DNA of 64,000 nucleotides from Candidatus Poribacteria bacterium. GTDB lineage: Bacteria > Poribacteria > WGA-4E > WGA-3G. Of the stretch, positions 8,985-50,579 are shown piece by piece; the stretch's first letter is position 1; each line of letters begins with the position of its first letter. Below the pieces are notes generated by a model. That model worked only from the letters and a program-made list of their open reading frames with translations. It was not told the DNA's origin and did no database searches. The stretch spans positions 13,961 to 77,960 of the forward strand of contig PYIY01000195.1 of NCBI GenBank assembly GCA_003635195.1, written 5' to 3'. The translations under genes and the position numbers were made by a program.

Positions 8985-10255
8985 TCTTCTCCACCGATGG
9001 CATAGAGTGCCTGATAACTACGGAGATAAAGCGTTCCGTTTGCGATAGCGGGAGACGCAGCGATGACTTCCCCCAGCGAATTGCTGGCGACGATTTCAAA
9101 CTCGCGTCCTGTTTTTACAACATTGACAATACCGTCCCGAGATGTTAGATAGATGTGTCCATTCGCATAGACAGGTGAGGCACGATGCCGGTGTCGATGC
9201 GTTCGCTTGCGATAGAGTTGCTCCCCGGTTTCGGCGTCAAGACATATCAGATCACCTCTCTCTCGACAGAGGTAAACCAAGCCGTTATGAATAACTGGAG
9301 AGGGAACATCAGGTGTGCCTTGTGGAAGTTTCCAAAGTTGCCATTTGCTATCAGTGATGTCCCCCTGCGCAGCTGGATCAATGCCGACAACGGGTCCGTT
9401 TTTCGCGGAGGGAACAACGATGAGTCCCTCTGTTGCAACAGGAGAAGCGACGAATCGGAGGGAGGGGTTATAACCCGCCTCTGGGTTAAAGCCGCCACAT
9501 CGCCAGATTTCGCTGCCATCTTCGAGGTTGTGGGCTGTGACATAGTCCGCCCCGTGGACAACAAGGTATTCACGTTCTGCATCGCGATAGAGAATTGGAG
9601 AGGTATAAGCCTGTTCACATTCATCGGTCGCATCACTGTCCCGATTATGCTTCCAGATCTCTGTGCCAGTCATCTTGTCGAGTGCTAAGACAACCCATGC
9701 GTTGCTGTGGATGAGTTGGAAGTAGAGTCGGTCTTTGTCAAGGAGCGGGGTAGTGGACATGACAAAGTAGAGATTGAAGCTACCATAACGGTCAGCGAGA
9801 TTGGTGTGCCAGACCTGATTTCCCTCAAAATCGTAGCAGGCGAGGTCGCCGGTTCCGAGGAACGCCCAGACATGTTCGCCATCTGTTACAGGAGAGGGTG
9901 CGGCGGAATTACCTTCGCCGCCGCGGACATCTCGGTTGCCATGTCCTAAAGTCTGCTTCCAGAGCTCTTCACCCTCAGTACTGATACACATCAAAACAAG
10001 GGCATCGCCTTCAGCCGAAGTCAGGAAAATTTTGTCTTCCCAAATAATAGGGGTAGAGGCGGCTTCACCGGGGAGCGGTAAACGCCATTTGATATTTTCG
10101 GTTTGACTCCACTGAATGGGTGCCTTGGTTTCATTGCTAATCCCATCGTTGTGTGTCCCGCGCCACTGTTGCCAATTGTCAGCGAAACTGTTAGTTGTTA
10201 GGATAAACGCCACAAGTAAGAACGTTATCGTGTATCTCAAAGTCTGTTTTTGCAT
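8981..10255 (-). CDS. PQQ-like beta-propeller repeat protein (BamB/quinoprotein-like), secreted
   Basis: Signal peptide is present. Multiple W-containing propeller blades are present (NWQQWRG, IWRCGG, etc.). The architecture is typical of PQQ-repeat propeller proteins. Confidence 0.8.
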   Translation of the reverse strand: MQKQTLRYTITFLLVAFILTTNSFADNWQQWRGTHNDGISNETKAPIQWSQTENIKWRLPLPGEAASTPIIWEDKIFLTSAEGDALVLMCISTEGEELWKQTLGHGNRDVRGGEGNSAAPSPVTDGEHVWAFLGTGDLACYDFEGNQVWHTNLADRYGSFNLYFVMSTTPLLDKDRLYFQLIHSNAWVVLALDKMTGTEIWKHNRDSDATDECEQAYTSPILYRDAEREYLVVHGADYVTAHNLEDGSEIWRCGGFNPEAGYNPSLRFVASPVATEGLIVVPSAKNGPVVGIDPAAQGDITDSKWQLWKLPQGTPDVPSPVIHNGLVYLCRERGDLICLDAETGEQLYRKRTHRHRHRASPVYANGHIYLTSRDGIVNVVKTGREFEIVASNSLGEVIAASPAIANGTLYLRSYQALYAIGGEE

Positions 10256-10309
10256 AATCCACCTCCGTTTTCAGGGAACCTTGCTACGATTCCGTGCCTA
10301 TAGTAAGCT

Positions 10310-10738
10310 TCAACGTTTCTCGTCTGTCCATAAACCTCGATCGGGTCCCTTCCATTGATAAGGTACTATTTTCGACAGATCGCCAATATTATACTCCAGA
10401 AATTCACACCCTGCTTCTATAACATACCCTTCGTTTGTGAAAACAGGGAACTCTAATTTGGCGAGAGCATCAAAAGGTTCGATCTCCAGCTGGACATCAA
10501 GTTTACCTTCCACTGTCTTGTAAAAAAAATCTGCGGAATGGCTTTCATGTTTCAGGATCATGACAGTACCGGACTGCTGAACCTCGCCATTAGATGCGCA
10601 AACCTTCACGCTGACGAGAAGATTACTCGCCGGTGGGGGATCTGAATGCACCTTAAACCATAAACCTTTGTGTGAACCCTCTGCAACGCCCTCATTTGGA
10701 CCGAGGATTTGAAATGTGACCGTTGGAATATCGCTCAT
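10310..10738 (-). CDS. Hypothetical protein
   Basis: Clean 142-aa ORF with coding-like composition. No recognised motif. Confidence 0.45.
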   Translation of the reverse strand: MSDIPTVTFQILGPNEGVAEGSHKGLWFKVHSDPPPASNLLVSVKVCASNGEVQQSGTVMILKHESHSADFFYKTVEGKLDVQLEIEPFDALAKLEFPVFTNEGYVIEAGCEFLEYNIGDLSKIVPYQWKGPDRGLWTDEKR

Positions 10739-11517: not shown

Positions 11518-13425
11518 CTATTCCTGATCCGGTTGTTGATAATACTGTCCGAGTACTTCATTGGCAAGGCTTCTGCCATCTTCAATGACGCGTGCTGCGA
11601 AATCAAGCGTAACTTGTTCAATGTTGCTCTCTTGCGCCCGCTGTTCAATTCGGGTCTGCGTAATATTCCGCATAAATCCAGCAGGTACTAAATTCAAGCG
11701 TTCGATTGCCTCTTCCGTCCATTTCACTGGACTTTCAAAACCTTGAACGGCTTCAGGACTCTGAGAGTCGGAAGTCTGTGTTTGCAAGGTTCTAAGCTCA
11801 GGGGCATCCTCACGCACTGCAGCTGCTTCCCCCATGCTGTCGTTGATAATCTCTGTTGCGAAGGCATTGGTGATAGTGCCAATTTTTTGGGCGCGTGCGG
11901 ATTTTTCGATGCGTGCTTTGACGTTTCGACGCATATAGCCGCGCGGCACCCCGCGCAGTGCCTTTTTCGCCTGTTCCGACCATTGGAGTCGGATGCCATC
12001 AAACGTTTCTTCTTCAGCAGCACCGCCTTCGTCTACGGCGATATTCTCCAGAGAATCCTTATCGACCATCTGAAAACGTTCCGGCGGTGAACTACAGACA
12101 GGACACTGGACAGGTTGCTGGTTGTGTGCGGCGTAGCCACATTCGCCGCAGATAAATGTTTGGACTGCATCTGATTCCAAGACTTTCTGTTCGGCGATCT
12201 CTTTTGCGACACGGGTGAGTTTTTCAGAGGCGCGTTGCGGCATAATCGCTTCCATCGCCATGTCAATGACACTCTCGGTAATAACAGAGTGCCCACGTTC
12301 TATAGCAAACCGATGGACGGCTGTTTTGGCGATGCCGCGCACCAAGGGTGGGGCTTTCTCCATTCTATCTAACGCCTCCTGCGTCCAGACGAGCGTTTCT
12401 TCCGCCTTCACATCTATTTGTGGGAAATAACGTTGACTGGATAAAAGGACATTGCAAGGCGCGAGACGTAAGAGATTCTCAGCAGTGCTTCCGATGTCCA
12501 TATCTTGTTCACTGTGGACACCGATTCTGCCTAAGACGAGGAGCCACGGGTTGGTTTTTCGGGCATATTGTAGAATTTTTTCGTAGGCTTTTCCATCAAG
12601 TAGGGTGATTTTTAGGGCATAGTCGTGTTCATCTTTTGCGATGGCGCGTGCGACTTCCAAATGTGACTGATAAATTTTAGCGAGTCCGGTATCAATGACC
12701 TCTTCGTGGAGTTGTTCTTGCTCTTTAAACCTGAAAGTTCTTGCGGCGCGCTCGGTTAGCACATTCACGACCGAATTGAAGACGATGTAGTGTAAATAAG
12801 GGTCATAGACGCCAACGGCTTCAACCTGTCTGTTGAACTTTTGTCCGAGTTGTATTGCGGTTTTCAAACCTGAGAAAGATTCAGGGCTACCATCAATTCC
12901 GACGAGGATATTTCCTTCATGTGCTTCAATGGGTTCAAGGTCCCGGACAACGAGCGTATCGGTATTAATACGACGGACGACGCGTTCAGTGACACCGCCG
13001 ATAAGGCTATCTTTGACTGCTCCCATCCCGAGTGCGCCCATAATGACGAGATCGTAATCGCTTTCTTGAATGTCTTCAACGAGTTTTATGTAGTGTTTAC
13101 CTTCCGGCATTTTGGGTTCAAACGGGATGTCAAATTCGGTGCACTTCTGTTTCATCACCTCAAGATAGGAATCGGAGATCAGTTGCAGTCCCATTGTAAT
13201 GAGCGTATCGTGGATTCGGCGTTGTTTTTCAAGTTCCACCTCGTCTTGATACTCCTCCGGGAGCGTGTATTCCATCTGCTTGAAGCGGACATCGTGCATC
13301 TTTGCGGCGTAAACGTGCGAGCCGACGAGATGTGAGCCGAATTTCTTCGCGAATTCAACCGCCAAAGCGATACTTGCATCCGAGTAGTCGGAATTATCAA
13401 CGGGCACGTAAATCTTTTTAATCAT
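11518..13425 (-). CDS. Tandem universal stress protein (UspA) domains fused to three PCP_red domains and a rubredoxin-like Zn ribbon
   Basis: There are two USP domains (KKIYVPVDNSDYS...DYDLVIMGALG...; ILVGIDGSPES...LLVLGRIGV). Three W(T/S).EA...L...P.F.R...... repeats match PCP_red. CGECGY...CPVCSS forms the Zn ribbon. Confidence 0.8.
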   Translation of the reverse strand: MIKKIYVPVDNSDYSDASIALAVEFAKKFGSHLVGSHVYAAKMHDVRFKQMEYTLPEEYQDEVELEKQRRIHDTLITMGLQLISDSYLEVMKQKCTEFDIPFEPKMPEGKHYIKLVEDIQESDYDLVIMGALGMGAVKDSLIGGVTERVVRRINTDTLVVRDLEPIEAHEGNILVGIDGSPESFSGLKTAIQLGQKFNRQVEAVGVYDPYLHYIVFNSVVNVLTERAARTFRFKEQEQLHEEVIDTGLAKIYQSHLEVARAIAKDEHDYALKITLLDGKAYEKILQYARKTNPWLLVLGRIGVHSEQDMDIGSTAENLLRLAPCNVLLSSQRYFPQIDVKAEETLVWTQEALDRMEKAPPLVRGIAKTAVHRFAIERGHSVITESVIDMAMEAIMPQRASEKLTRVAKEIAEQKVLESDAVQTFICGECGYAAHNQQPVQCPVCSSPPERFQMVDKDSLENIAVDEGGAAEEETFDGIRLQWSEQAKKALRGVPRGYMRRNVKARIEKSARAQKIGTITNAFATEIINDSMGEAAAVREDAPELRTLQTQTSDSQSPEAVQGFESPVKWTEEAIERLNLVPAGFMRNITQTRIEQRAQESNIEQVTLDFAARVIEDGRSLANEVLGQYYQQPDQE

Positions 13426-39700: not shown

Positions 39701-40231
39701 GGCCGCACAGCAGACGGTAATCTTTGGTAAATGTGCTTGGATAGAGATTACAGACTTAATTTGGTAATGTGCGGTGTTAATTGTCAGAATCAGGATTTAC
39801 AGGGTTCAAGGATTTTCAGGATTAGGGGGTATTCTGGAAGAAAACTTGCTTTCGACCAGATAAAGGTTCTCAAAACGGATGGACGCTTGTCTGCTTTAAG
39901 AACATTCATACCCCCAACAATCCCATAAATCCTACAATCTTGCCAATCTCGGTCTATCTGTGTTCAGGGGCATTTAGTTTTAAATATTCACTTTATTTCT
40001 CTGAATATACTTCTTCTGTAGGAGCGAGCTGTGCTCGCGATATTGCGTCCAAAATTTAACATCTGTTAACCAAAATCAAGATTGGAACCGAAAACTGAAT
40101 AGTCCTGATCTGCGTTAAACTTCATATATGATGAAACTACTTGATACTGTCGCACTTTTGGAAGATATACCCATACACAATTCTTTAGTCGGGTAGGAAA
40201 GATAGCTGTATAGAAGCACGAGGTCACAATT

Positions 40232-41788
40232 ATGAAATTAAGCACTGTCGAAGCTAAAAAACGCCCCTCCTTCAACTATATTGAATATTTTGAAACGCAG
40301 CTCTATTATCAATGCATCACGTGTTCAACGGTTGTAGAACCTGAAATGGGGTACTGTCGAGAATGCAATGCAGAGTTAAATCCAAATAATAGGCAGCAGC
40401 TATTTTGCTATGAGTGCAGAAAGCCAATCATCTACAAAAGAGACTATTTCATAAACAAAAAACACTTTGTCTCACACTATCCTGTTAATTACTTAGCATG
40501 CCAATGTCCAGGAAACCTCTGGATACCATTCATAAAAAATCAGAATTTTAGTGATCCTGCTACAGGATTAGTGAGGATCACAGTAGATAATATGTACATT
40601 TGGACTATTTGCTGTGCCGAATCTTCTCGATATAGCAATAATGAAGATATTTACTTCATTAATTGCCAACAGCAAGAAGATGATCTATTCCTAAAGCCCT
40701 ATATAAGATACAATATAGGAAAGACAAAATTATCTACATCAGAACGTAATGAATTTACTGGTAGATACTATAGAATATGCACGGATGTCATATCGTTAGG
40801 TATCAAATTGGGTATTTTAAGAGAATTAATGCGTGATGAAACATTTGCTAGGCGGGGGTGGGTTCGGTTAGAAAATCGGATACAAGAAATATTAGACTTT
40901 TCTGGAATATACTTTAGTAATGAGTTAATATCTAGCCTATTGGAAAATTGTTTTGCCAGATTACGGAGGCTTTTTAATCCAGCCCCCAAAGATAAAGAGA
41001 ACACTGTTGAACGATACAGAAATGACTTTCTCAAAACTTCTTACCCCAAAACACATAAGTTTGAACGTAAGAAATACGGGATCGCAAAACTAATTGGAAG
41101 GCTGAAAATATTAACAAACAAAAGTATATTACACGACGACATTGATTTTAACAGCAATATTTTCCTTGGAGATTGTCGAACCCTATTCGATTTCTACGAC
41201 GACACAGTTCTGAAAACTATAGATATCCTCAACAAGATGCACCGGTTCAAATTGTTCTTTAATCACGAAGACTCATTAAGGTCCTTAGGTTTACATAATA
41301 CTGGTGGAGAGATAGCACTGGCTTACTTGAGATTGGGAGATGAAGCCTTAACCGCATATAAACAAAAACAAGCACTCGAACTATTACGTTTTGACAACTA
41401 CATTGACAATGGAAACCTATCTCCTGAAGAACGTGAAAGTTATGAAAAGAAAAGAGATATTTATGAACGTAACCTTAACTCCTTCTTTGACCGCTGGATT
41501 ATCTGGGATCACCAAACATCTTTAAATATAATCCTTCCAGACGGTCAACATATTGAGATGCCCTATGGTTTCAAGAGTATGCGCCTCACAAAAACCCATG
41601 ATGGCGATTATATTATTTACATTAAAACCCCGGGTATTACCCTATGTCCTAATTACCGTATAGAGTACTTTGGCAATAACGAAAATTTCGCAAGACAGGT
41701 ATTTAGAGTAATTGATAAACAAAGGTATGAACACGAAACTATAGACTTAAGCAATTTCACATACGATTCCTCACTAACTATATTCTGA
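40232..41788 (+). CDS. Hypothetical protein with N-terminal multi-CxxC zinc-ribbon region, encoded in AT-rich DNA
   Basis: 518-aa ORF, about 36-38% GC against about 50% in the flanks. CITCSTV...CRECNAEL...CYECRKP Cys pairs are present. No recognisable catalytic motif. Confidence 0.5.
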   Translation: MKLSTVEAKKRPSFNYIEYFETQLYYQCITCSTVVEPEMGYCRECNAELNPNNRQQLFCYECRKPIIYKRDYFINKKHFVSHYPVNYLACQCPGNLWIPFIKNQNFSDPATGLVRITVDNMYIWTICCAESSRYSNNEDIYFINCQQQEDDLFLKPYIRYNIGKTKLSTSERNEFTGRYYRICTDVISLGIKLGILRELMRDETFARRGWVRLENRIQEILDFSGIYFSNELISSLLENCFARLRRLFNPAPKDKENTVERYRNDFLKTSYPKTHKFERKKYGIAKLIGRLKILTNKSILHDDIDFNSNIFLGDCRTLFDFYDDTVLKTIDILNKMHRFKLFFNHEDSLRSLGLHNTGGEIALAYLRLGDEALTAYKQKQALELLRFDNYIDNGNLSPEERESYEKKRDIYERNLNSFFDRWIIWDHQTSLNIILPDGQHIEMPYGFKSMRLTKTHDGDYIIYIKTPGITLCPNYRIEYFGNNENFARQVFRVIDKQRYEHETIDLSNFTYDSSLTIF

Positions 41789-42234
41789 CCAGTCGCGTAG
41801 GTTGGGTTGAACGGATACCCCCAAACCCTGATAGATCGGCAGGAGAATGAGTTTTCCATAGATGTTAGGTCAGACAAAAACCAAGTGAAACCCAACATTT
41901 TTGCTGATGGTCTGAAGTTGGGTTTCACTGCGTTCTTGATTTCGGATGCCAATATGTTAAATTTACGTGTATTTGGTGCAGCACATCTATTTTCTCAGTT
42001 CCGTTCAACTTGGGGGAGACACCCAAGCAAAACACCTACGCGGCTGTCAACGGCTAAAATTACGGATTTTTCACCGCCTTTCTGTCTAGCGGAATATAGC
42101 GAAATGCCGCGACAGTTGTAAAGGTTACTGCCAATCGACTGTAAGAATATGCCACCTTTCCTGTGGCTGTCGCCGCGGAGGATTTTCGTTTCTATACACC
42201 TGTCGCACGACTGGTACTAAATACGTCCCGATGG

Positions 42235-45200
42235 CTATTGAAAATCAAGCACTTCATCAATCTCTGCCATAATCCGCAGCGTTTCTCCTACTGCAACCAA
42301 AATTCCAGAATACTGCCGCACCTCCGCATGGGTTAACGCCGTGTTTTTTCTATCCTGCAACCACTTCTTACACACCTGATACGCCCCAATCTTATATTCC
42401 CACACCTCAGCAGGTACATCCGTGAAATGTTGATCGTCATTAATCCAAACGTGTCCACCCGCATAGCGAACTTTTGAGACAACGGCATTGCCTTCACCTT
42501 CAAACCGATGTAGCGGTGAAATCTGTACATCTTTCAAAAGATGCCAATCAATCAAATTCTGCCCCAACGCTGCAAGTTTTCGGAAGTATTCAATATCTTG
42601 CGGCAAAGGGATATATGGAAATCCATATTTCAAAAACTCATAGTAACTTTCACGATAGATAGGGCTATAAAGATGGGCGTAGATATAGGCGATAATTTCC
42701 TCTGATGAAACGCCTTGAGGGGGTTTTGATAATGCAGTTTGCGGCAAATCGAATTTTTCTGAGAGCACTTTAAGGAAATCAGGGTTGAAATTATGTTGGC
42801 GTTCTGTTGTCAATTCTGCCCTATTGGGATCCTCATAAATATAGAGCGGGAATACGTGTACAGACTCACTTGATCCACTTGAGAGATAACAATTCTCTGT
42901 AATTTCGTCGGTTATTAAAATATGTTGCCACTGCTTGCCTCCTTTGACTATACGACAGACACAAAGAGCAATATTTTCGTTTAGCAAATGAGGCATAATA
43001 TCATTGCGTGGACTCGTGTGAAATCCGCAGGATCGTCCAGTATAGTAGGTTTTACGAACATCAAAAGGACGGTGTCGAATAGGTACAATATACTGTTTTG
43101 CATTGGAGTGGTCGCGGAGATCTTGTTGTGCCAGATGGACTTTCCAATATCGGTTGTCCAAATCATATTTTTTCTGCACCTCGTTTTCGGAGAGTGACAC
43201 AAAGTTTTGTACAGTCTCGCGTAACGTATTCTCTGTGCGATGAATAGTTACTTCGTTACGTCCGGTGACAATTCCGCTTGAACCGGACTGGAAAATCTCA
43301 TTTAGCTGCCATCCATGTTTGTATATTGCCTCGCGGTTTGGGACAGAATCTTGAGGGACAAAAAGGTAGAGCGGAGATGCGGGATGCAATTCACACCAAT
43401 CAGTTTTTTGGACATCAGTTTCCAAAAGTGTTCTATATTTTTCCTCTCGATTTCCCCACATATCCGCGTAGTAGCATGTTGCTTTGCCCGGAGTGCTGCT
43501 TTCTTTGACGCATAATAGAATCGCAACCCCCACTTCTATGTCAAATACGTTCTGATCCTCTTTTCCATCTGGAATAGCTTCCTCTACTATTATACTGCCG
43601 TGCAAATTAAGTAGGTATATGGAGTCAAAACTGTCTAATAAACTCTGCCGCATCCTACGAAAAGTTAAACCGTCAAGGAAGCTATTATTCACAATGTAAC
43701 CAACAACACCTTCGCCATTTTTATCAATTCGCCACTGTGCCCACCGGATAAACTTAACATAATCGGATTGCAGTGATTTTTTCTGGTCCCAGATCCCCAA
43801 CAGTTGTCCATCTACTGGTTTGTAATCCTCAATGAGCTGTCCAATAAAAGTTGGTTGGTCATCATTATCGCTACTCGGATTTGCCGAGGCTAGGGGATAG
43901 GGTGGATTACCAAGAATGACGAGGAGTGGTTCGTCCCGCTTTACTGAAACCGCTGCATTTGCCTCATCAGAGATAAATCCTGCAAAAGGTAAACGTTGCT
44001 CGCGCTCTATAGGTTCCTCTAACGTATTAGTAAGATAGACGCGGAGACGTTCGGTTGCCTGCCATCCTTGCGCTTGTAGAAACAGACTCAACTTCAGATG
44101 TGCAATCGTATAGGGTGCAACCAACAACTCAAATCCGAAAAGTCGTTTGACCAATTGTGCATTGATATACCGGTTCCAGTCGCCTGTACCGTAGGTCGTT
44201 GTGACGTATTCACGGATGTGGTCAAGTACTGCAAAAAGAAAACCTCCGGTGCCCGTCGCGGGATCAAGAATGAGCGTGTTGTCATCGGAAAGCCCATCAG
44301 ATCTGTTAAGTGCTGTCTTGAGCAAAACATCAACAGATCGAACAATGTAGGAGATAACCTGTGGCGGTGTATAATAGACCCCGCGTTCCACGCGCAGCTG
44401 CGGGTCATATTCAGCAAGAAATGTCTCATAGAAATGGATCACTGGATCTTCAAGATGAGTTCTCGCAATAAACGCCGTGCGAAGCATCTCTGTAGGGACA
44501 TTTTGAAGAAGGTTTGCAATGTCCTCCAAAATATAAGTAATGTTTGCATTAAGATTTGGCGAATCTATTTGGTGGAAAAGTTGTCGCAAAAATGGATTTG
44601 ACTGCGGGAGCGCGCTGGCGGCAGTTTCTCGTGAGAAGTTTGTCGCGTTAGGTAACGCGCAGCGTGCAGCGAAGAGTCCATACGCTAGTGTCTGTGCGTA
44701 CATATCCGCAAACTTGCCAGGAGTCAATGTAGAGAGGAGAAGTTCCTTAAAGGCCGAGAACATCGCGTAGGTGTCGCTGTTTTCATCGGTGAGCCTCGTT
44801 TCGATTTGTGTTTGGAGTTCACGGGTTCGGCGTGCAAGATGCTTCGCGAGTGCCTCCGGAGTGGTGATTTGCATGGAGCCCGCACTGAAAAATCCATCTA
44901 ACAGGCTTTCCAGATTTTCAATTCCGTTGTCAATTAGTGCTATCGCGCGCGATGTCCCATTCGTATATAACCGAAACTCCACGAAATTGGTGAGGATAAA
45001 GTTATCAAGGTTCTCAATAAAACGTTCATTCTGCACCTTGGCGTGCCCAGTGAGTGCATCAAGGTTCCTGCCATAAGCCTCCGCCTCAATATAACCGAGA
45101 GGGAATAGACCTTCTCTGACAACAAAATCCGGTCTGCCGATTTCTAACTGTCGCGGCTCGTGGGTAATCCTGATAGTATATTCTAAAAGTTCAGCGGTCT

Positions 45201-45314
45201 GTTCCAAAAAGTCTTTGAGATGTCCGTGTAAGGAGAGTTCAGCGGTAGCATCGCCCTGTTCTCGGGTCTGTTGGATGTTTTGCCTGTACGTTCTACAAAT
45301 CTGTTGAAATAACA
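42235..45314 (-). CDS. MmeI-family (Type IIL) single-chain restriction-modification enzyme homolog: N-terminal PD-ExK-like domain + N6-adenine DNA methyltransferase + TRD
   Basis: MTase motif I ILDPATGTGGFLFAV and motif IV LGNPPYP are present. The N-terminus GRPDFVVREGLFPLGYIEAEAYGRNLD...LTNFVEFRLY parallels MmeI GFVDLFWPGILLIEMKSRGKDLD...LVCDFQRFRLT (from memory). Start taken as MLFQQIC at 45314 (GGAG SD); the ORF track extends to 45432. Confidence 0.75.
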
Positions 45315-45499
45315 TTAGGCTCCTTTTTAATTCAGATAGTTTTAGAATCGAATATAAATCGCGTTTGTCCTCTCTACTACCAGTACTATTTGTTGAAAAT
45401 GAAAACAGTTGATAATGTTTTGGTAACAACAATACATTAAAACCCTAAGTATGGTAGTGGTATCTGAACGAGCTTTAACTCTGTTCACTGTTAGGAATA

Positions 45500-47449
45500 T
45501 TATCTTCCCCGATTGAGATCTTCAACAGTTTTCTTGATACCTCTTGCAATATTTGTAAATGCCTCATCCTGATTTTCCCATAGCGTCACAGCCTTCACAC
45601 CTCTCGGTAATGCCTGAAGTTTACCAAAGGGTGCCTCTTCCCAATCAACAGGACGCAGTATTATAGGAATTACCCGGGCCTCTCCGACACTGTGTCGTTC
45701 CATAGCACGCTTCATTTCAATATCATAACAATAATCGGATGCAAGGAAATCAGCACTAACAAGCAGAAGTATTATGTGAGCAGTATTCAAGTGTTCATGA
45801 ATCTCTCCTTCCCATTCTCTACCAGCACTTATTTTCCGATCATGCCAATCTGTAATAACTCCCTGTCTTCTCAAAATGGAGAGGTGGTTCTCAAGTTGTT
45901 CTCGTAACTCCTCATCTCTGTGGGAATAAGAATAAAAAAGCTCAACCCCACCCGGTTGCGATCCTGAACCGATTGTTTGATCCTGTTGTTCTTGAATTAA
46001 ATTGGATAAATACTCCCTCTCTGCAATCATTTGGAGAAACGAACCCTCTGGTAATGGAAGAAAAGGATCATCATGTATTGCTTGCATTCTGCGGATGGCG
46101 GCCTCCACTTGTTCACCATGTCGATGACAGACTTTCCAAACTTTCTCCACCTTCTCTTTTTCACTCGTCCCAGGTATATAATCAATGAGATCAATTAACT
46201 CATTGAGCATCTTATAATAAAAATTATCATAATTTAGCGCAGTAAAGTGCTTTGCTTGGCGAACATAATCAATCAGCGTAGTTCTGACTTCATCCTTCCC
46301 AACACCTTCCTTAATAAAATCAAACGTGTAAATACCACTGTCATCTACATCATCTAATTCCGAGCCATAAGCGGCAAATCTTCGATCTATACATTGCGAA
46401 CAACCACCACAATGAGTTGCTTGGCCTGTATGTTGAAGTGTTTGACTGCAAGACACTGTGCTTGTGATCAAATCCTCTCGTCCAGCTTCAGATAGAATCT
46501 GGTAGATTTCTGTTTTGGTTTTCCATAAGAAAGGGGTGGCGATTTTAACTTTCGGTTCATAGATTGTTGCAAAGAAATTCTCAAGACACATTATCGTTTT
46601 TGGATGTGTCGTCCGGCTAGCTCTTGCATTCATCAGATCTTGTCTCTTTGGAAAGTTAATCGAAGTGATTCCATTTTCATAAACAAAAATCTCCCTCTGG
46701 GAAAGAGCATGTGACAAAGCGTAAGCGATAGCAGTATACAAAAAAGAACGAGTTCGTTGCGTTTCCTCCCTCGCTCGAATTTGGCGTAAACTACAATAAA
46801 ATTTGTAATGTCTGATCCGATTCGGATAACGTTGATGAAGTGCTCTAACTAACTGGTCCTGTGTTCTTGCAGTCTCTGGCTGACCAGAACGGTGACTAAT
46901 GAGGCAGAGTTGATCAGAAGAATTTTCAAGACAGTCAACAATCCCAGCCAAGGAATCAAGTCCTCCTGAAAAAAGAATCACTTTTGTATTTTGCTGGGGT
47001 TCAATTTGAAACGTTTCCTGATCAAACAAGTTTGTCGGGTCAGTTGAGTGCCCGGATTGAAAAGAGAAATGATACGTCTGATCGCCGGACATAAAGACGA
47101 GTGTTTCTTTGAGTCTTTCCTTGACATCAGCCCTATCCCAGAAAGCAAAATCTCGAACTTTAATGACAAAGTAAAATGACCTTGCCCAACTATGGGACTC
47201 TACACTGGCTTTATTTCCACGAGAGGTTAACCTATCGGCACAAAAAACATAGGCAGCAATCTCTAACAAATCAAGGATACGATCAGGAAAATGAGATACA
47301 TAGTGTATAAAACTAGGCAGGCCAAGTTTTACATTTGGGATCTTGTTGGAAAATTCTCGATATTCAAGGACTAAATTATCATCTTGAGCCCATTGCTGAG
47401 GTGGATCTGCACCATTACATAGTACAATTCGTGGAGGGACATCTCTCAC
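45500..47449 (-). CDS. Fusion protein: unknown N-terminal domain + QueC-like PP-loop ATP pyrophosphatase domain + C-terminal TIR domain
   Basis: PP-loop KVILFSGGLDSLAGI is present. The QueC-type C-terminal Zn motif reads LWKTKTEIYQIL...STVSCSQTLQHTGQATHCGGCSQCIDRRFA; compare E. coli QueC LMWIDKAETW...[21 protein letters not shown]. The final ~140 aa are a bacterial TIR domain (LFYSYSHRDEE...W...LLLVSADFLASDYCYDIEM with the conserved Glu). Confidence 0.7.
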   Translation of the reverse strand: MRDVPPRIVLCNGADPPQQWAQDDNLVLEYREFSNKIPNVKLGLPSFIHYVSHFPDRILDLLEIAAYVFCADRLTSRGNKASVESHSWARSFYFVIKVRDFAFWDRADVKERLKETLVFMSGDQTYHFSFQSGHSTDPTNLFDQETFQIEPQQNTKVILFSGGLDSLAGIVDCLENSSDQLCLISHRSGQPETARTQDQLVRALHQRYPNRIRHYKFYCSLRQIRAREETQRTRSFLYTAIAYALSHALSQREIFVYENGITSINFPKRQDLMNARASRTTHPKTIMCLENFFATIYEPKVKIATPFLWKTKTEIYQILSEAGREDLITSTVSCSQTLQHTGQATHCGGCSQCIDRRFAAYGSELDDVDDSGIYTFDFIKEGVGKDEVRTTLIDYVRQAKHFTALNYDNFYYKMLNELIDLIDYIPGTSEKEKVEKVWKVCHRHGEQVEAAIRRMQAIHDDPFLPLPEGSFLQMIAEREYLSNLIQEQQDQTIGSGSQPGGVELFYSYSHRDEELREQLENHLSILRRQGVITDWHDRKISAGREWEGEIHEHLNTAHIILLLVSADFLASDYCYDIEMKRAMERHSVGEARVIPIILRPVDWEEAPFGKLQALPRGVKAVTLWENQDEAFTNIARGIKKTVEDLNRGR

Positions 47450-48231
47450 TTCTTACTGCTCTCCCGTTGTAATTCCTCACGCATCTTTCCAAAAGCGTGC
47501 CATAAAAATCCTTGAACCTCTTTTTTGCTAGGAATACCTTTTTTCGTATGTTGATTAAACCAACCTGCTGCGAAAGACTGTGTAATCTTCGCTGTTTCAA
47601 AGGCATTTGAAGAAATAGCATCAATGTGTTTTTCAAGATACTGCCCAAATTTAATTCGTTCATCAATACTACCTAAAGCTGCAGAAATTTCTCTTTCCAA
47701 AAAATACTCTAAATACCCCTGTGTAAATTTTCCGAAAAACAGACGCGATAATTCACAGAATCCCGCACCATTCCCTGCTTTACGCCATACTTCAAAAGGA
47801 TCTTTCAATGAATCCAAAAGACTAAGTGAATTCACGTGATTTTGATCATACCAAATAGAAATTGCTTCACTAGCAGCCTTTTGGGCAATTCCACTATATT
47901 CAAAAGAATCTTTTTGAGATGCAACATAAGCATTGACAGCTTTCGCAAAAGAAAGTGGTGTTGGATTATTAGGAAGTTCAATCCCAATATCCAACAACCA
48001 AACTTGTGGGTTTTCTTCACGCGAAGCAACAGCAAGATTGACTAGGAATTGAAACGTACCCAAAACACCACTATCTCGCTCAATATGACGAAATCGTGAT
48101 CTAACATTCTGAATTGTCTTTTGCGTAATATCCTCGATTTCAGTATCAGATACATGCCTTCCAGCAATCTGTTCAAAAATATCTCGCCACTTTTTCGTTT
48201 GGGGAAGAACAGACATTCGTTCATGACCCAT
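47446..48231 (-). CDS. Hypothetical 261-aa protein translationally coupled to the QueC-TIR gene (ATGA overlap)
   Basis: AT-rich coding ORF with no recognised domain. A possible R-x4-H (RSRFRH) motif is present. Confidence 0.5.
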   Translation of the reverse strand: MGHERMSVLPQTKKWRDIFEQIAGRHVSDTEIEDITQKTIQNVRSRFRHIERDSGVLGTFQFLVNLAVASREENPQVWLLDIGIELPNNPTPLSFAKAVNAYVASQKDSFEYSGIAQKAASEAISIWYDQNHVNSLSLLDSLKDPFEVWRKAGNGAGFCELSRLFFGKFTQGYLEYFLEREISAALGSIDERIKFGQYLEKHIDAISSNAFETAKITQSFAAGWFNQHTKKGIPSKKEVQGFLWHAFGKMREELQRESSKK

Positions 48232-48372
48232 TACTTGATCTCCATATCACAATTTCTTATCGGATTCCCTTATTCCTTGCGTATATTGACAAGGACTTTC
48301 CTTTCTGGCTTTAGCTATCAGAAATCAGAGCCAGTTGTTGACTCCGTGTGGTTCAACAGCATAAGTCCACCT

Positions 48373-49293
48373 TTAATCTTGGTTTTTGACAAGAACTACC
48401 TTAATAGCAGATAAACCTCTATCCGTATGATGGATGTCAAATTTCACTTTTTGACCTTGTTGAAGCAAATTGACTTTTTCATTCAAAATTTGTGACTCAT
48501 GCACAAATATATCCGGATCATGTTCCTCACACGTTATGAAGCCGTACCCTTTGATTGTGTCGAACCATTTTACCTCTCCTTGTGTCCGGATTAAAAGCGG
48601 CGAAATTTCTCTTTCGATCATTTTAACGGCTTTTGAAAATGGAATCTGAAAAAATTCTCTATCCATTCGTATTCGATAATCACTCAGTAGTTTGAAAACG
48701 AGATTTTCTGCCTCTTTGGCATCTTCCACTTCAAAAACTGCTTTTGCAGAATACGGTATTAACACACCTGTTGCTGAGTTTATCTCCTTAACTCTGTCTT
48801 CTACAGAACGAGTAGTCATTCCGATCTTTAGAACATCAGGTTCATCTTTCCTTGACAAAATATACAACCAACCATGTTTCCCCTGAGAGACACGAATTTT
48901 TCTATGATTTTTCCAATGACTAAGGTAGGTCGGAAGGGTCCCGCTAATCAAAGTCCCACGTATCAAAAGTGCTTGTTCAAAATCACGTCCCTTTAGACTT
49001 TCCCGGAGCTTAACTAATAGGGAAACAATGGAATTCATTTCACTTCTAGGCGGATGGCCAAGTCTATCATAGACAGTAAACCAATTCCATTGGTCTTTCC
49101 TTAATGACCGATTAAACATACCTTTCAGTTCTGAAATAGCATCCAAATCTACCTGGTCTGGAGGAATTCCATCACTTAAAAAAAGAGATACAACATCTAC
49201 GGCATTATCAAAACGTCTTCTCATAGTTACCGACAAATCTGACATTCCAAATCCATATTTATGTATAGTCATCGGCGTTATCTTCTTTATCAA
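48373..49293 (-). CDS. T5orf172/MUG113 (GIY-YIG superfamily) domain protein with C-terminal cold-shock (CspA-like S1) DNA-binding domain
   Basis: GWLYILSRKDEPDVLKIGMTTRSVEDRVKEINSATGVLIPY...REFF matches T5orf172. The C-terminal GEVKWFDTIKGYGFITCEEHDPDIFVHESQI...GQKVKFDI is a cold-shock domain. Confidence 0.65.
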   Translation of the reverse strand: MIKKITPMTIHKYGFGMSDLSVTMRRRFDNAVDVVSLFLSDGIPPDQVDLDAISELKGMFNRSLRKDQWNWFTVYDRLGHPPRSEMNSIVSLLVKLRESLKGRDFEQALLIRGTLISGTLPTYLSHWKNHRKIRVSQGKHGWLYILSRKDEPDVLKIGMTTRSVEDRVKEINSATGVLIPYSAKAVFEVEDAKEAENLVFKLLSDYRIRMDREFFQIPFSKAVKMIEREISPLLIRTQGEVKWFDTIKGYGFITCEEHDPDIFVHESQILNEKVNLLQQGQKVKFDIHHTDRGLSAIKVVLVKNQD

Positions 49294-49384
49294 TCTTGGT
49301 TTGGTGTATTTGAAGCGGCTACTGCCAGTCTGTCATCAGAATCAAACTATGGTACAGGGTCATTACAATTTTAAGAAATTATAG

Positions 49385-49835
49385 AGTTTCTTGTCCTTTT
49401 TCAGGATCCGGTGCGGTTAGGAAACCGCACCATAGGTGTCAATTTAGTGATTTTCACGATGTTTTTGTAGCATCATCTCTTCAAATGCTGCAGAAATCCG
49501 CAGAAATACCCAAGCAAAGACACCTATCAAAAACCCCCTACGGGGCTTAGATGTGTGAGGTCCCGTTTTTCTACAGAGATGCTTAAAGAAATACCCAAGC
49601 AAATAAACCCTACGGGATTCAAGAGGTTTTTGAAGTCTTCAAGATTTCCGCGTAGTATCCGGTTCGGTTAGGAAACCGAACCTACCGGGCCTGGATACCC
49701 AAGCAGTTATTTTTTCTAAAATTGACACCTATGGTGCGGTTAGGAAACCGCACCTACCGGGTCTGGGAGTCTAAAATTGGACGAAAAAACCGAGAACTGA
49801 ATAGCTCTGGACTATGGTATAAAACATTGACTATT
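49385..49835. repeat. Composite cluster of modular repeats (three hairpin modules, two CCCAAGCAAA modules); homologous to 58310..58700
   Basis: GGTGCGGTTAGGAAACCGCACC occurs at 49410 and 49733. The variant GGTTCGGTTAGGAAACCGAACC occurs at 49661. gcagaaatacccaagcaaagacacctatcaaaaaccccctacgggg occurs at 49500. About 80-90% identity to the 58.3-58.7 kb copy. Confidence 0.6.
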
Positions 49836-49849
49836 ATCTCAAATCTCCA

Positions 49850-49924
49850 AGATTTGTCAACTATTTTCAATTTCCCCATAGAATTTGAAAAACTTTAAGA
49901 AAATGATTTCACTCTCTCAATGTG
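49850..49924. repeat. ~85-bp imperfect direct repeat, right copy (partner at 38691..38780)
   Basis: See 38691..38780. Same orientation. Together they bracket the AT-rich accessory segment. Confidence 0.5.
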
Positions 49925-49946: not shown

Positions 49947-50579
49947 TCAAAAAAGGGTGAGTCTCGGTGTTTCGGATGCGTCTTGTAGTTTTTGTGCTGC
50001 CTCGGCAATATCATCAACGAGGATTTGACGCATTGCGGTGAAATCCTCACCTTCTTGTCGTAGGATATAAGCCGGGTTAAACGTTGCCATAGCAAAGGGT
50101 GCGTACTGGGTATCTGTAAACCAGATGCCGCGTTCTTCCGTGATGCGGAAACCTCTGTGAATCAGCACTTTCGCTGCGGGTGCACCCATGCAGAGAATCA
50201 CCGAAGGTTGTATGAGGGTGAGCTCTCCATCAAGCCATTTGGAGCAGGCTTTAATCTCTGATGCTTTCGGTGGGCGGTTTTTCAATACACCCCCTTTAAG
50301 CCCTGCTGCTCGGCACTTAATAATGTTGGTGAGCCAGATGTCCCTGCGCGTTAAGTCGTTTATTGTCAGCACTTCATCAAGCAAATCCCCAGTAGGTCCT
50401 GAAAACGGCAATGTTGTGTGATTATCTGCAGCGGAGGGTCCCTCTGCAACAAGTACCAATTTCGCAGCGGCATCCCCACTGCCGAAAACGACGTTCGCAC
50501 GGGTTTTCGCTAAGTCACAATCCGTACAAACGCTGGCGCGCGCTTTGAGAGTGTGCATTTGTGTATGAACAGTGCTCAT
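49947..50579 (-). CDS. Uracil-DNA glycosylase, family 4-like
   Basis: CTDCDLAKTRANVVFGSGDAAAKLVLVAEGPSAADNHTTLPFSGPTGDLL matches the family-4 UDG N-terminal consensus (C..C.L...R...VfG.G....lm.vGEaPG...d..G.PF.G..G.LL). Confidence 0.75.
   Translation of the reverse strand: MSTVHTQMHTLKARASVCTDCDLAKTRANVVFGSGDAAAKLVLVAEGPSAADNHTTLPFSGPTGDLLDEVLTINDLTRRDIWLTNIIKCRAAGLKGGVLKNRPPKASEIKACSKWLDGELTLIQPSVILCMGAPAAKVLIHRGFRITEERGIWFTDTQYAPFAMATFNPAYILRQEGEDFTAMRQILVDDIAEAAQKLQDASETPRLTLF

Follow-up and report, generated by a model that had tools for sequence, protein, structure and literature searches.

A 64-kb stretch of DNA from a Candidatus Poribacteria bacterium (the window, in which all coordinates are given) encodes on its minus strand a pair of overlapping genes: (i) one for a 649-amino-acid (aa) protein with a GTG start codon (45500..47449, -, from the open reading frame (ORF) list, with the translation checked), which joins a QatC-like PP-loop enzyme of the QueC family to a C-terminal TIR domain, and (ii) one, immediately upstream, for a 261-aa partner protein. 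The pair resembles QatB and QatC of the QatABCD anti-phage system (Gao et al. 2020), for which QatBC structures are available (9y01/9y02, 9vlk/9vll and 9zee/9zef; PMC13279940, PMC13376578, PMC13639016). Its features are the following.

45500..47449 (-), QatC-like-TIR fusion gene, 649 aa (Pfam, PADLOC, NCBIfam, phmmer, AlphaFold2 (AF2) and Foldseek)
47000..47449 (-), residues 1-150, alpha/beta N-terminal extension, predicted equivalent of the QatC N-extension (Foldseek, AF2 secondary structure)
46364..46987 (-), residues 155-362, PP-loop ATP-pyrophosphatase (QueC-fold) core (Pfam QueC, QatC phmmer, QueC 3bl5 Foldseek)
46952..46969 (-), PP-loop SGGLDS, residues 161-166 (S161, D165, S166), predicted by QatC alignment to bind the beta/gamma phosphates of ATP
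46601..46618 (-), SRTTHP, S278-P283, QatC-type substrate-site motif, replacing the Tyr/Asp of QueC and Cap9
46391..46450 (-), putative Zn-binding cysteines C334, C347, C350 and C353 (CGGCSQC is 347-353), which align to the QatC cysteines
46022..46294 (-), residues 386-476, helical C-terminal extension (AF2 helices; within the 480-column QatC superposition)
45953..46009 (-), residues 481-499, disordered Gln/Gly/Ser linker and boundary of C-terminal domain exchange (predicted local distance difference test (pLDDT) 30-33)
45506..45946 (-), residues 502-648, TIR domain, putative NADase effector (Pfam, PADLOC, PDB sequence match, Foldseek)
45716..45718 (-), codon of E578, putative catalytic Glu in YCYDIEM (HMMER alignment, conservation)
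47446..48231 (-), partner gene, 261 aa, QatB-like putative substrate or regulator (ORF, synteny, AF2 model, Foldseek)
48187..48231 (-), partner N-terminal tail MGHERMSVLPQTKKW, Gly2 putative acceptor, L9/P10/W15 conserved
48240..48243 (-), GGAG Shine-Dalgarno, 8 nt 5' of the partner ATG (read from the sequence)
47446..47449 (-), GTGA overlap of the partner TGA stop and the fusion GTG start, predicted translational coupling (sequence)

The 649-aa protein is, by sequence and structural model, a QatC-type PP-loop enzyme in which all three parts of QatC are present and fused to a TIR domain. The first-pass annotation of this DNA had described a QueC-family PP-loop enzyme fused to TIR, with SGGLDS, C...CGGCSQC, the preceding LWKTKTEI (residues 308-315, before the Zn site) and the Glu of YCYDIEM; the translation bears out the ORF and each of these motifs, and the profile matches (Pfam QueC, E 2.5e-9, above the gathering score; Pfam TIR_2, E 1.9e-14, likewise above it) bear out the fusion, which is specifically QatC-like. 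The PADLOC QatC model matches residues 56-381 (E 3e-50) and the NCBIfam QatC model gives E 2.5e-58, while phmmer against the PDB retrieves the QatC chains 9vlk_A and 9zee_B at E ~1e-23, with alignments that start at residue 56. In the AF2 model (pLDDT 82), residues 1-480 superpose on the full QatC crystal structure 9y01_B (Foldseek; 480 columns, TMt 0.76, E 1e-16), and the QueC of Bacillus subtilis, 3bl5, is a much weaker, partial match (E 7e-5). The first ~150 aa, earlier set apart as an unknown N-terminal domain, are on the same sequence and model comparisons QatC's own N-terminal extension, as the profiles run from residue 56 and the superposition takes in the whole of residues 1-480.

The residues on which QatC depends map onto the fusion. 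By phmmer alignment, S156/D160/S161 of Pseudomonas aeruginosa QatC correspond to S161/D165/S166, H180 to H186, R233 to R234, F237 to Y238, T278/T280 to S278/T280 and the cysteines C334/C354/C357/C360 to C334/C347/C350/C353; the motif SRTTHP aligns to T278-R279-T280-T281-H282-P283. Mutations of S156/S161, T278/T280 or the Zn cysteines abolish QatABCD defence (PMC13279940), and each QatC residue so needed has a counterpart in the fusion (alignment; PMC13279940). Conservation was taken from an alignment of 41 TIR-type homologs, in which most of the mapped residues are invariant, Y238 being in neither conserved set. SGGLDS is invariant there (SGG.DS in 117 of 120 homologs), as are the four Zn cysteines (C..C..C in 120/120) and R279, T280, T281 and P283; S278 is conserved in at least 90%. 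A flexible loop (residues 269-276, pLDDT <50) lies N-terminal to SRTTHP. The Tyr/Asp pair that recognizes deazaguanine is replaced by S278/T280, as in QatC and unlike in QueC and Cap9. Because this pair is replaced and the first substrate of QatC remains unidentified in the literature (PMC13279940, PMC13376578), conjugation of a 7-deazaguanine derivative, as the first-pass annotation had supposed, is not safe to assume. The helical C-terminal extension corresponds to that by which QatC binds QatB; it is kept in variants with other effector tails, and the hidden Markov model (HMM) of the core matches to ~position 485.

The TIR domain is matched by Pfam TIR (E 1.3e-6) in addition to TIR_2, and over residues 503-647 by the PADLOC model of the Thoeris TIR, ThsB1 (E 5e-64). 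The nearest solved structure by sequence is the Cat1 TIR (PDB, E 1.4e-6), while Foldseek matches include plant TIRs, SARM1, ThsB and SPARTA. In HMMER alignment E578 falls, with a one-residue insertion, on the Glu of the xWCx(D/E)-EL motif of Cat1, Roq1 and AT1G72930, and it is invariant in the 41 TIR-type homologs. The domain is predicted from this conserved Glu, the sequence mark of catalytic TIRs, to be NADase-competent.

The partner gene overlaps the fusion gene by the four bases GTGA, so that the translational coupling proposed earlier is seen in the sequence, and its ATG, hence an MG N terminus, is supported by the GGAG Shine-Dalgarno sequence upstream. AF2 models the partner as an all-alpha protein of 11 helices (pLDDT 86, pTM 0.87), in which the first ~14 residues are disordered (residues 1-10 at pLDDT <50). 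An MG start is found in 117/120 partner homologs, which share the tail MGH.R...LP...W with L9, P10 and W15 invariant in the alignment; the motif is kept by partners of PNP, restriction endonuclease (REase) and unclassified-tail variants, the upstream partners in the three variants checked (a PNP-type, an unclassified-tail type and a Leptospira plasmid copy) beginning MGH.R.G.LP. QatB (~30 kDa) is helical, its N-terminal tail being unstructured, and has an essential MGTS motif and a conserved Pro16/Trp18, with Gly2 sitting in the active site of QatC (PMC13279940, PMC13376578, PMC13639016); the canonical QatB alignment reads MGTS...G9...L14.P16.W18. The partner shares with QatB the position, the 4-bp overlap, the size, the all-alpha fold, the disordered tail and the MG, with MGH.R in the motif instead of MGTS. 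Against 350,542 PDB chains, Foldseek ranks QatB first (9y01_A, probability 0.99, TM 0.47/0.54, at an E of only 0.18) and a second QatB chain follows (9y02_A, probability 0.96), all non-QatB matches having TM <=0.27. Sequence searches of solved structures and family libraries retrieve nothing for the partner: phmmer against the PDB gives chance matches only (E >=0.4), and Pfam, NCBIfam and PADLOC assign no family, a single Type I specificity match (E 0.01) being taken as chance. PF28083, in precomputed annotation, is carried by canonical QatBs and by 0/120 partner homologs, and PADLOC-DB v2 holds no model for the partner. Since a sequence match is undetectable and the fold evidence is mixed, the partner is called a counterpart and not a homolog of QatB: by sequence and model it appears to be a positional and architectural analog, for which remote homology is possible. 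The weight of these features leans towards the partner being the N-terminal acceptor of a modification.

The conserved unit consists of two genes, those of the partner and of the fusion. In a pattern scan of 185,579 species, each represented by one genome, 571 loci encode a relative of the QatC-like body; the best 80 were analyzed, with ORFs called de novo and searched with HMMs built from the family's own alignments. These 80 include Poribacteria, Armatimonadota, Chloroflexota, Bacteroidota, Ignavibacteriota, Verrucomicrobiota, Planctomycetota, Bacillota and other phyla, and the family is also found in Spirochaetota. The pairing is obligate: in all of the 84 loci in which the fusion gene was found, it is immediately preceded on its strand by the partner gene, with an overlap that is usually 4 or 8 bp. 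Canonical qatB-qatC pairs have the same gene order and similar overlaps. No further gene is conserved: when 665 neighboring ORFs are clustered, no cluster extends beyond 19 of the 78 loci. Most frequent among the neighbors are Type ISP/IIG-like restriction-modification (R-M) enzymes, Type I methylases and integrase- or primase-like genes, while BREX PglZ, Fic, AAA_13 and insertion sequence (IS) elements exemplify the flanks; the neighbors of TIR-type pairs in Armatimonadota and Zipacnadia are housekeeping genes (PPDK, sulfatase, PhyH and RtcB). With four QatA proteins (KAP-family NTPases) as queries, tblastn finds no QatA in the window or the related loci except a P-loop fragment in one of them, L085, and with four QatD proteins (TatD-family nucleases) it finds no match in the window or 88 related loci. 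The gene tables compiled for related loci likewise show no QatA. For CD-NTase and the TGT-like Cap10, the five island genes scanned have no PADLOC or Pfam match and no such conserved neighbor cluster is seen. The absence of QatA, QatD, CD-NTase and Cap10 had been stated in the first-pass annotation and stands; its reading of the gene as lacking its partners does not, as the 261-aa protein fills the place of QatB and a QatBC-like core results. The QatA-like signal of L085 (Larkinella sp. C7, ~11998..12168), the sole one among the related loci, is a 49-70 aa match to the QatA P-loop region just downstream of the pair.

Across the family, homology ends at ~residue 485, that is, in the linker, and what follows is exchanged. 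Among the best 80 loci together with those found earlier, 53 tails are of the DpnII-MboI REase type (Pfam PF18742, E 2e-9), 15 are TIR, 10 are unclassified tails of ~97 aa in two clusters, and a few are singletons. The nuclease tails keep E57, P70-D71 and E82-x-K84 (PD..ExK) in 51 of 51 sequences. A HMMER search of 1.84 billion cluster representatives (50% identity) with residues 1-480 returns 880 proteins at E <= 1e-30 and 2,910 at E <= 1e-10; the best 150 of the 880 divide into 42 nuclease tails, 5 TIR, 22 without a tail (<40 aa past the QatC-like core) and 81 others. Pfam families among the latter include PNP_UDP_1, Trypsin_2, a calcineurin-like phosphoesterase (Metallophos) and a sigma54-type AAA+ domain, with a weak match to DUF4062 (E 0.0029, below the gathering cut-off), and several large clusters are without a Pfam family. 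TIR is a minority occupant of an exchangeable C-terminal slot in which the DpnII-MboI nuclease is the commonest. A constant regulatory body with interchangeable toxic domains is a familiar pattern in defence, as in CBASS, Avs and similar systems. Because the slot exchanges toxic domains on a constant body, the TIR is argued to be a terminal effector, and it is likely one that depletes NAD.

Several immune systems share parts of this design. The fusion has the three-part architecture of QatC (N-extension, PP-loop QueC core with Zn site, helical C-extension) and its (S/T)-R-T-T-H-P substrate motif, and the all-helical ~260-aa protein immediately upstream, with its 4-bp overlap and disordered Met-Gly tail, completes the likeness to QatBC. 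QatBC alone is reported to be sufficient against some phages, and the pair described here is likewise without QatA and QatD. Unlike QatABCD, there is no QatA (KAP NTPase) or QatD (TatD nuclease); unlike QatC, an effector domain, here TIR, is fused at the C terminus; and unlike QatB, the partner has no detectable similarity by PF28083, NCBIfam QatB or hhalign and reads MGH.R...LP...W where QatB has MGTS...LxPxW. Identity of the fusion to QatC is only ~21-25%. The pair most probably works like QatBC; it is not filed as QatABCD, because QatA and QatD, two of the four components that define that system, are absent and the evidence on a third, QatB, is mixed. In the PF06508 family survey only ~34% of the QatC cluster is linked to qatA or qatD.

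Cap9 of type IV CBASS (Wassarman et al. 2025) is likewise a QueC-family immune enzyme, which acts on the Gly2 N terminus of a partner protein, and a TIR protein shares the operon in the Thoeris systems with cap9/cap10/cap11 (Yirmiya et al. preprint 2025). However, Cap9, at ~185 aa a minimal QueC, retains the Tyr/Asp site for deazaguanine, whereas the ~480-aa body of the fusion is of QatC type with the site replaced, and type IV CBASS has Cap10 (TGT-like), Cap11 (OGG-like) and a CD-NTase with an MGGS tail, none of which is present here. In the cap9-type Thoeris operons a separate TIR is the presumed substrate, whereas in the pair described here enzyme and TIR form one protein and the MG tail belongs to the other. 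As in TIR-SAVED, TIR-APAZ/SPARTA, Cat1 and TIR-STING, a TIR with a catalytic-type Glu is tethered by a linker to a putative sensor or regulatory module and there is no separate effector gene; unlike in these assembly-activated NADases, the module is a PP-loop enzyme with a partner rather than a nucleotide-binding or Argonaute sensor. The TIR scores strongly with the ThsB profile, as in Thoeris; unlike in Thoeris, there is no ThsA or other signal-responsive effector and the TIR is fused. Canonical QueC differs in its YxQxHxxE / VPxRN / YPDC signature and in the equivalog cut-off, neither of which the fusion matches.

Fusions of QatC or QueC to an effector are not described in the three QatBC structure papers, the PF06508 survey, the deazaguanylation paper, a TIR-system survey or full-text searches of an incomplete collection, nor is this fusion catalogued in PADLOC-DB v2, NCBIfam or Pfam. 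The novelty claimed in the first-pass annotation holds to that extent; its uniqueness does not, the TIR form being a minority in a large family. What is new is a two-gene system of QatBC-like type in which the effector is fused and interchangeable; its family is large and without a name in the libraries and literature searched.

The pair (48231..45500, -) is proposed to form an autonomous anti-phage system on a QatBC-like core, and a defence function is very likely. It lies in a low-GC island, and related loci stand beside R-M, BREX (PglZ), AAA_13 and integrase genes; in addition, QatB and QatC alone protect against phage lambda-vir (PMC13279940). The partner would probably bind the QatC-like body and present its processed N terminus (Gly2) to the PP-loop active site. 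If it acts as Cap9 does and as is modeled for QatBC, the enzyme may use ATP to adenylate a carboxylate first substrate, probably other than 7-carboxy-7-deazaguanine, and then transfer the adenylated carboxylate onto the N-terminal amine of the partner; conjugation to an acceptor amine is demonstrated for Cap9-CdnD and proposed for QatBC. The transfer, triggered or completed in infection, would switch on the fused TIR, most likely through TIR assembly, and the activated TIR would degrade NAD+ and abort the infection. In sister systems the same switch may drive the PD-ExK nuclease, the PNP phosphorylase, a protease or another domain. The full chain from modification to TIR-driven abortive infection is about evenly poised between being right and being wrong. 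A wider formulation is more tentative, at somewhat short of even: the partner/QatC-like module would be a general, self-contained infection switch in which ATP-dependent modification of a protein N terminus directly gates any fused toxic domain, and which forms a hitherto unrecognized, phylum-spanning two-gene defence family distinct from QatABCD. The partner would then perhaps not be a homolog of QatB, and the moiety might be new, not a deazaguanine and possibly a phage-derived metabolite.

Several points weigh against this mechanism. The fusion scores 198 bits with the NCBIfam QatC model, below its equivalog cut-off of 280 bits. The hhalign probability of the partner profile against QatB profiles (of 6, then 63 sequences) is 0.1-0.15, and the partner tail is ~14 residues long as opposed to 30-90 in QatB. 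The best TIR profile is that of Thoeris ThsB, a signal-producing and not an NAD-depleting TIR. Moreover, the core step rests on an unproven precedent, because the reaction of QatC has yet to be reconstituted in vitro and the published work leaves the first substrate without a name (PMC13279940, PMC13376578, PMC13639016).

Alternatively, the pair may be a defence system in which the partner is not the substrate but an infection sensor or an antitoxin-like inhibitor of the TIR, and the PP-loop domain modifies another target, such as a phage protein, a nucleotide, a nucleic acid or the fusion itself. Such an arrangement would suit a tail far shorter than that of QatB, and it would fit the finding that QatC with QatB showed no pyrophosphatase activity in vitro (PMC13376578, PMC13639016). 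The MG start, the disordered tail and the L-P...W residues are, however, marks of the N-terminal acceptors of Cap9 and QatC (PMC13279940), features that would be left unexplained in a mere inhibitor, and QatB is the best Foldseek match of the partner; this alternative is considered unlikely.

The ThsB1 match raises instead a Thoeris-like scheme, in which the TIR would make a cyclic ADP-ribose-type signal for a separately encoded effector and the QatC-like/partner module would be a priming or regulatory ancillary, the role proposed for Cap9/Cap10 in some Thoeris operons; operons of Thoeris with cap9/cap10/cap11 as ancillary genes are reported (bioRxiv 10.64898/2025.12.03.692087). Such an effector is not seen: no ThsA-like or recurrent effector gene occurs near the TIR-type pairs, whose neighbors are the housekeeping genes named above, and there is no third gene conserved across the family. 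The sister occupants of the slot are, moreover, terminal effectors (PD-ExK nuclease, protease, PNP phosphorylase) and not signal synthases, which makes signaling of this kind improbable.

The first-pass annotation had spoken of a four-gene operon; with this as the unit, the T5orf172-CSD protein and the Type IIG R-M enzyme would act together with the pair. The four share a strand with gaps of only 141 bp and 67 bp, a Type ISP-like orthologue follows the pair in the Poribacteria loci L007, L008 and L010, and T5orf172-CSD lies near the pair in L001, another Poribacteria genome. Across phyla, however, only two genes travel together: outside Poribacteria neither extra gene accompanies the pair, and the pair of L001 is intact despite an R-M gene reduced to a fragment and a T5orf172-CSD gene separated by IS elements. 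The neighbors also match stand-alone families, REase_MTase_IIG (established) and PDC-S57 (candidate), and a terminator-like hairpin precedes the partner, a weak point as such sites are not enriched over shuffled sequence. Joint action of the four is very improbable.

A metabolic or DNA-modification QueC that makes preQ0 or a 7-deazaguanine derivative, with the TIR fusion incidental, would account for the above-threshold Pfam QueC match and for the label 7-cyano-7-deazaguanine synthase that some sources give to homologs, but is scarcely credible given scores of 31.9 bits with TIGR00364 (cut-off 150.3) and 19 with PRK11106 (cut-off 378), a match restricted to the C-terminal third of the QueC profile, the QatC-type S/T-x-T in place of the deazaguanine Tyr/Asp pair, the failure of Escherichia coli QatC to complement a queC deletion (PMC13329287), and the lack of a conserved queD, queE, folE or tgt beside the pair in neighbor clustering. 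The four-gene operon, canonical QueC function and Thoeris membership were each considered and rejected on the evidence above.

The QatBC-like system with an exchangeable effector bears on questions raised by the three 2026 QatBC papers, namely what QatC conjugates to QatB, how the phage is stopped and which effector is involved. QatA and QatD are dispensable against some phages. A putative TIR NADase or PD-ExK nuclease hard-wired to a QatC-like enzyme, with QatA and QatD dropped, argues that the B-C pair is a sensor or switch and not a killing device, and related pairs that swap TIR for other toxic domains could show what the Qat immune core controls. With the fused effectors, activation, and hence the missing first substrate, could be sought biochemically through a simple readout, NAD+ loss or DNA cleavage; if the module is a general switch, the TIR and nuclease variants would be the first easily measured output for the unsolved QatC reaction. 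The family also brings in many likely defence loci whose present labels are "hypothetical protein", "TIR domain-containing protein" or "7-cyano-7-deazaguanine synthase".

The pair is not notably plasmid- or phage-borne in the collections searched, because the plasmid collection (PLSDB) holds a single copy and a partner search of the phage collection finds none. The plasmid copy, on Leptospira noguchii plasmid p1_LIP1709037 (L092, 6001..8645), has an REase-type tail, and both of its genes are labeled hypothetical proteins in RefSeq; it is flanked by IS982 and IS3 transposases. The variants with the unclassified ~97-aa tail occur in Ignavibacteria and Melioribacter (L052, L053, L055, L057, L059, L066, L067, L080 and related loci); in 9 loci they are followed by a 133-aa helix-turn-helix (HTH)/excisionase-like gene and an 825-aa primase-like gene, which suggests carriage by a mobile element. 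In L093 (1..4004), a PNP_UDP_1-tailed pair adjoins two further PNP_UDP_1 proteins, one with the effector-associated domain EAD7, and the locus may be a cluster of PNP-based defence genes.

In the window, the pair is adjoined by a Type IIG/ISP-like R-M enzyme and a T5orf172-CSD protein (Pfam and PADLOC profiles), and the GC content of the island (40.0-49.9 kb) is 0.408 vs 0.477 in the remaining window, in agreement with the AT-rich, defence-type island and the neighbors noted on first reading. Both genes recur beside the pair within Poribacteria only and are neighbors, not parts, of the unit. The R-M gene (42235..45432, -) encodes a 1065-aa Type IIG/ISP-like restriction-methylase (PADLOC REase_MTase_IIG, E 4.5e-240; Type_ISP_C); the orthologous enzyme of L007, L008 and L010 has ~1030 aa and lies downstream of the pair, and in L001 the gene is decayed to a 155-aa fragment (9971..10438) beside an intact pair. 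The T5orf172-CSD gene (48373..49293, -) encodes 306 aa with a T5orf172/MUG113 (GIY-YIG-like) domain and a C-terminal cold-shock domain (CSD), and matches the PADLOC candidate PDC-S57 (E 1e-21) as well as, in the CSD, the retron Se72 effector model. The gene probably stands by itself as a single-gene defence candidate, and in L001 it lies near the pair with IS elements in between. Between this gene and the partner gene is the terminator-like hairpin (48326..48346, -), with a T-rich tail, a weak hint of transcription separate from the T5orf172-CSD gene. A promoter/terminator scan of 42-50 kb gives site numbers not above those of shuffled sequence, and no operon boundaries are therefore drawn from it.

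The island (~40000..49900) is flanked by a UDG gene (49947..50579) and by Rieske/cytochrome b genes. On its plus strand, in the lowest-GC stretch of the window (0.37), lies a gene (40232..41788) whose 518-aa product has a double zinc ribbon at the N terminus, by weak Pfam DZR matches, and otherwise no family match. The same chromosomal site is found in L001, there with inserted DDE_3 transposases, and the low-GC island looks like a variable defence hotspot.

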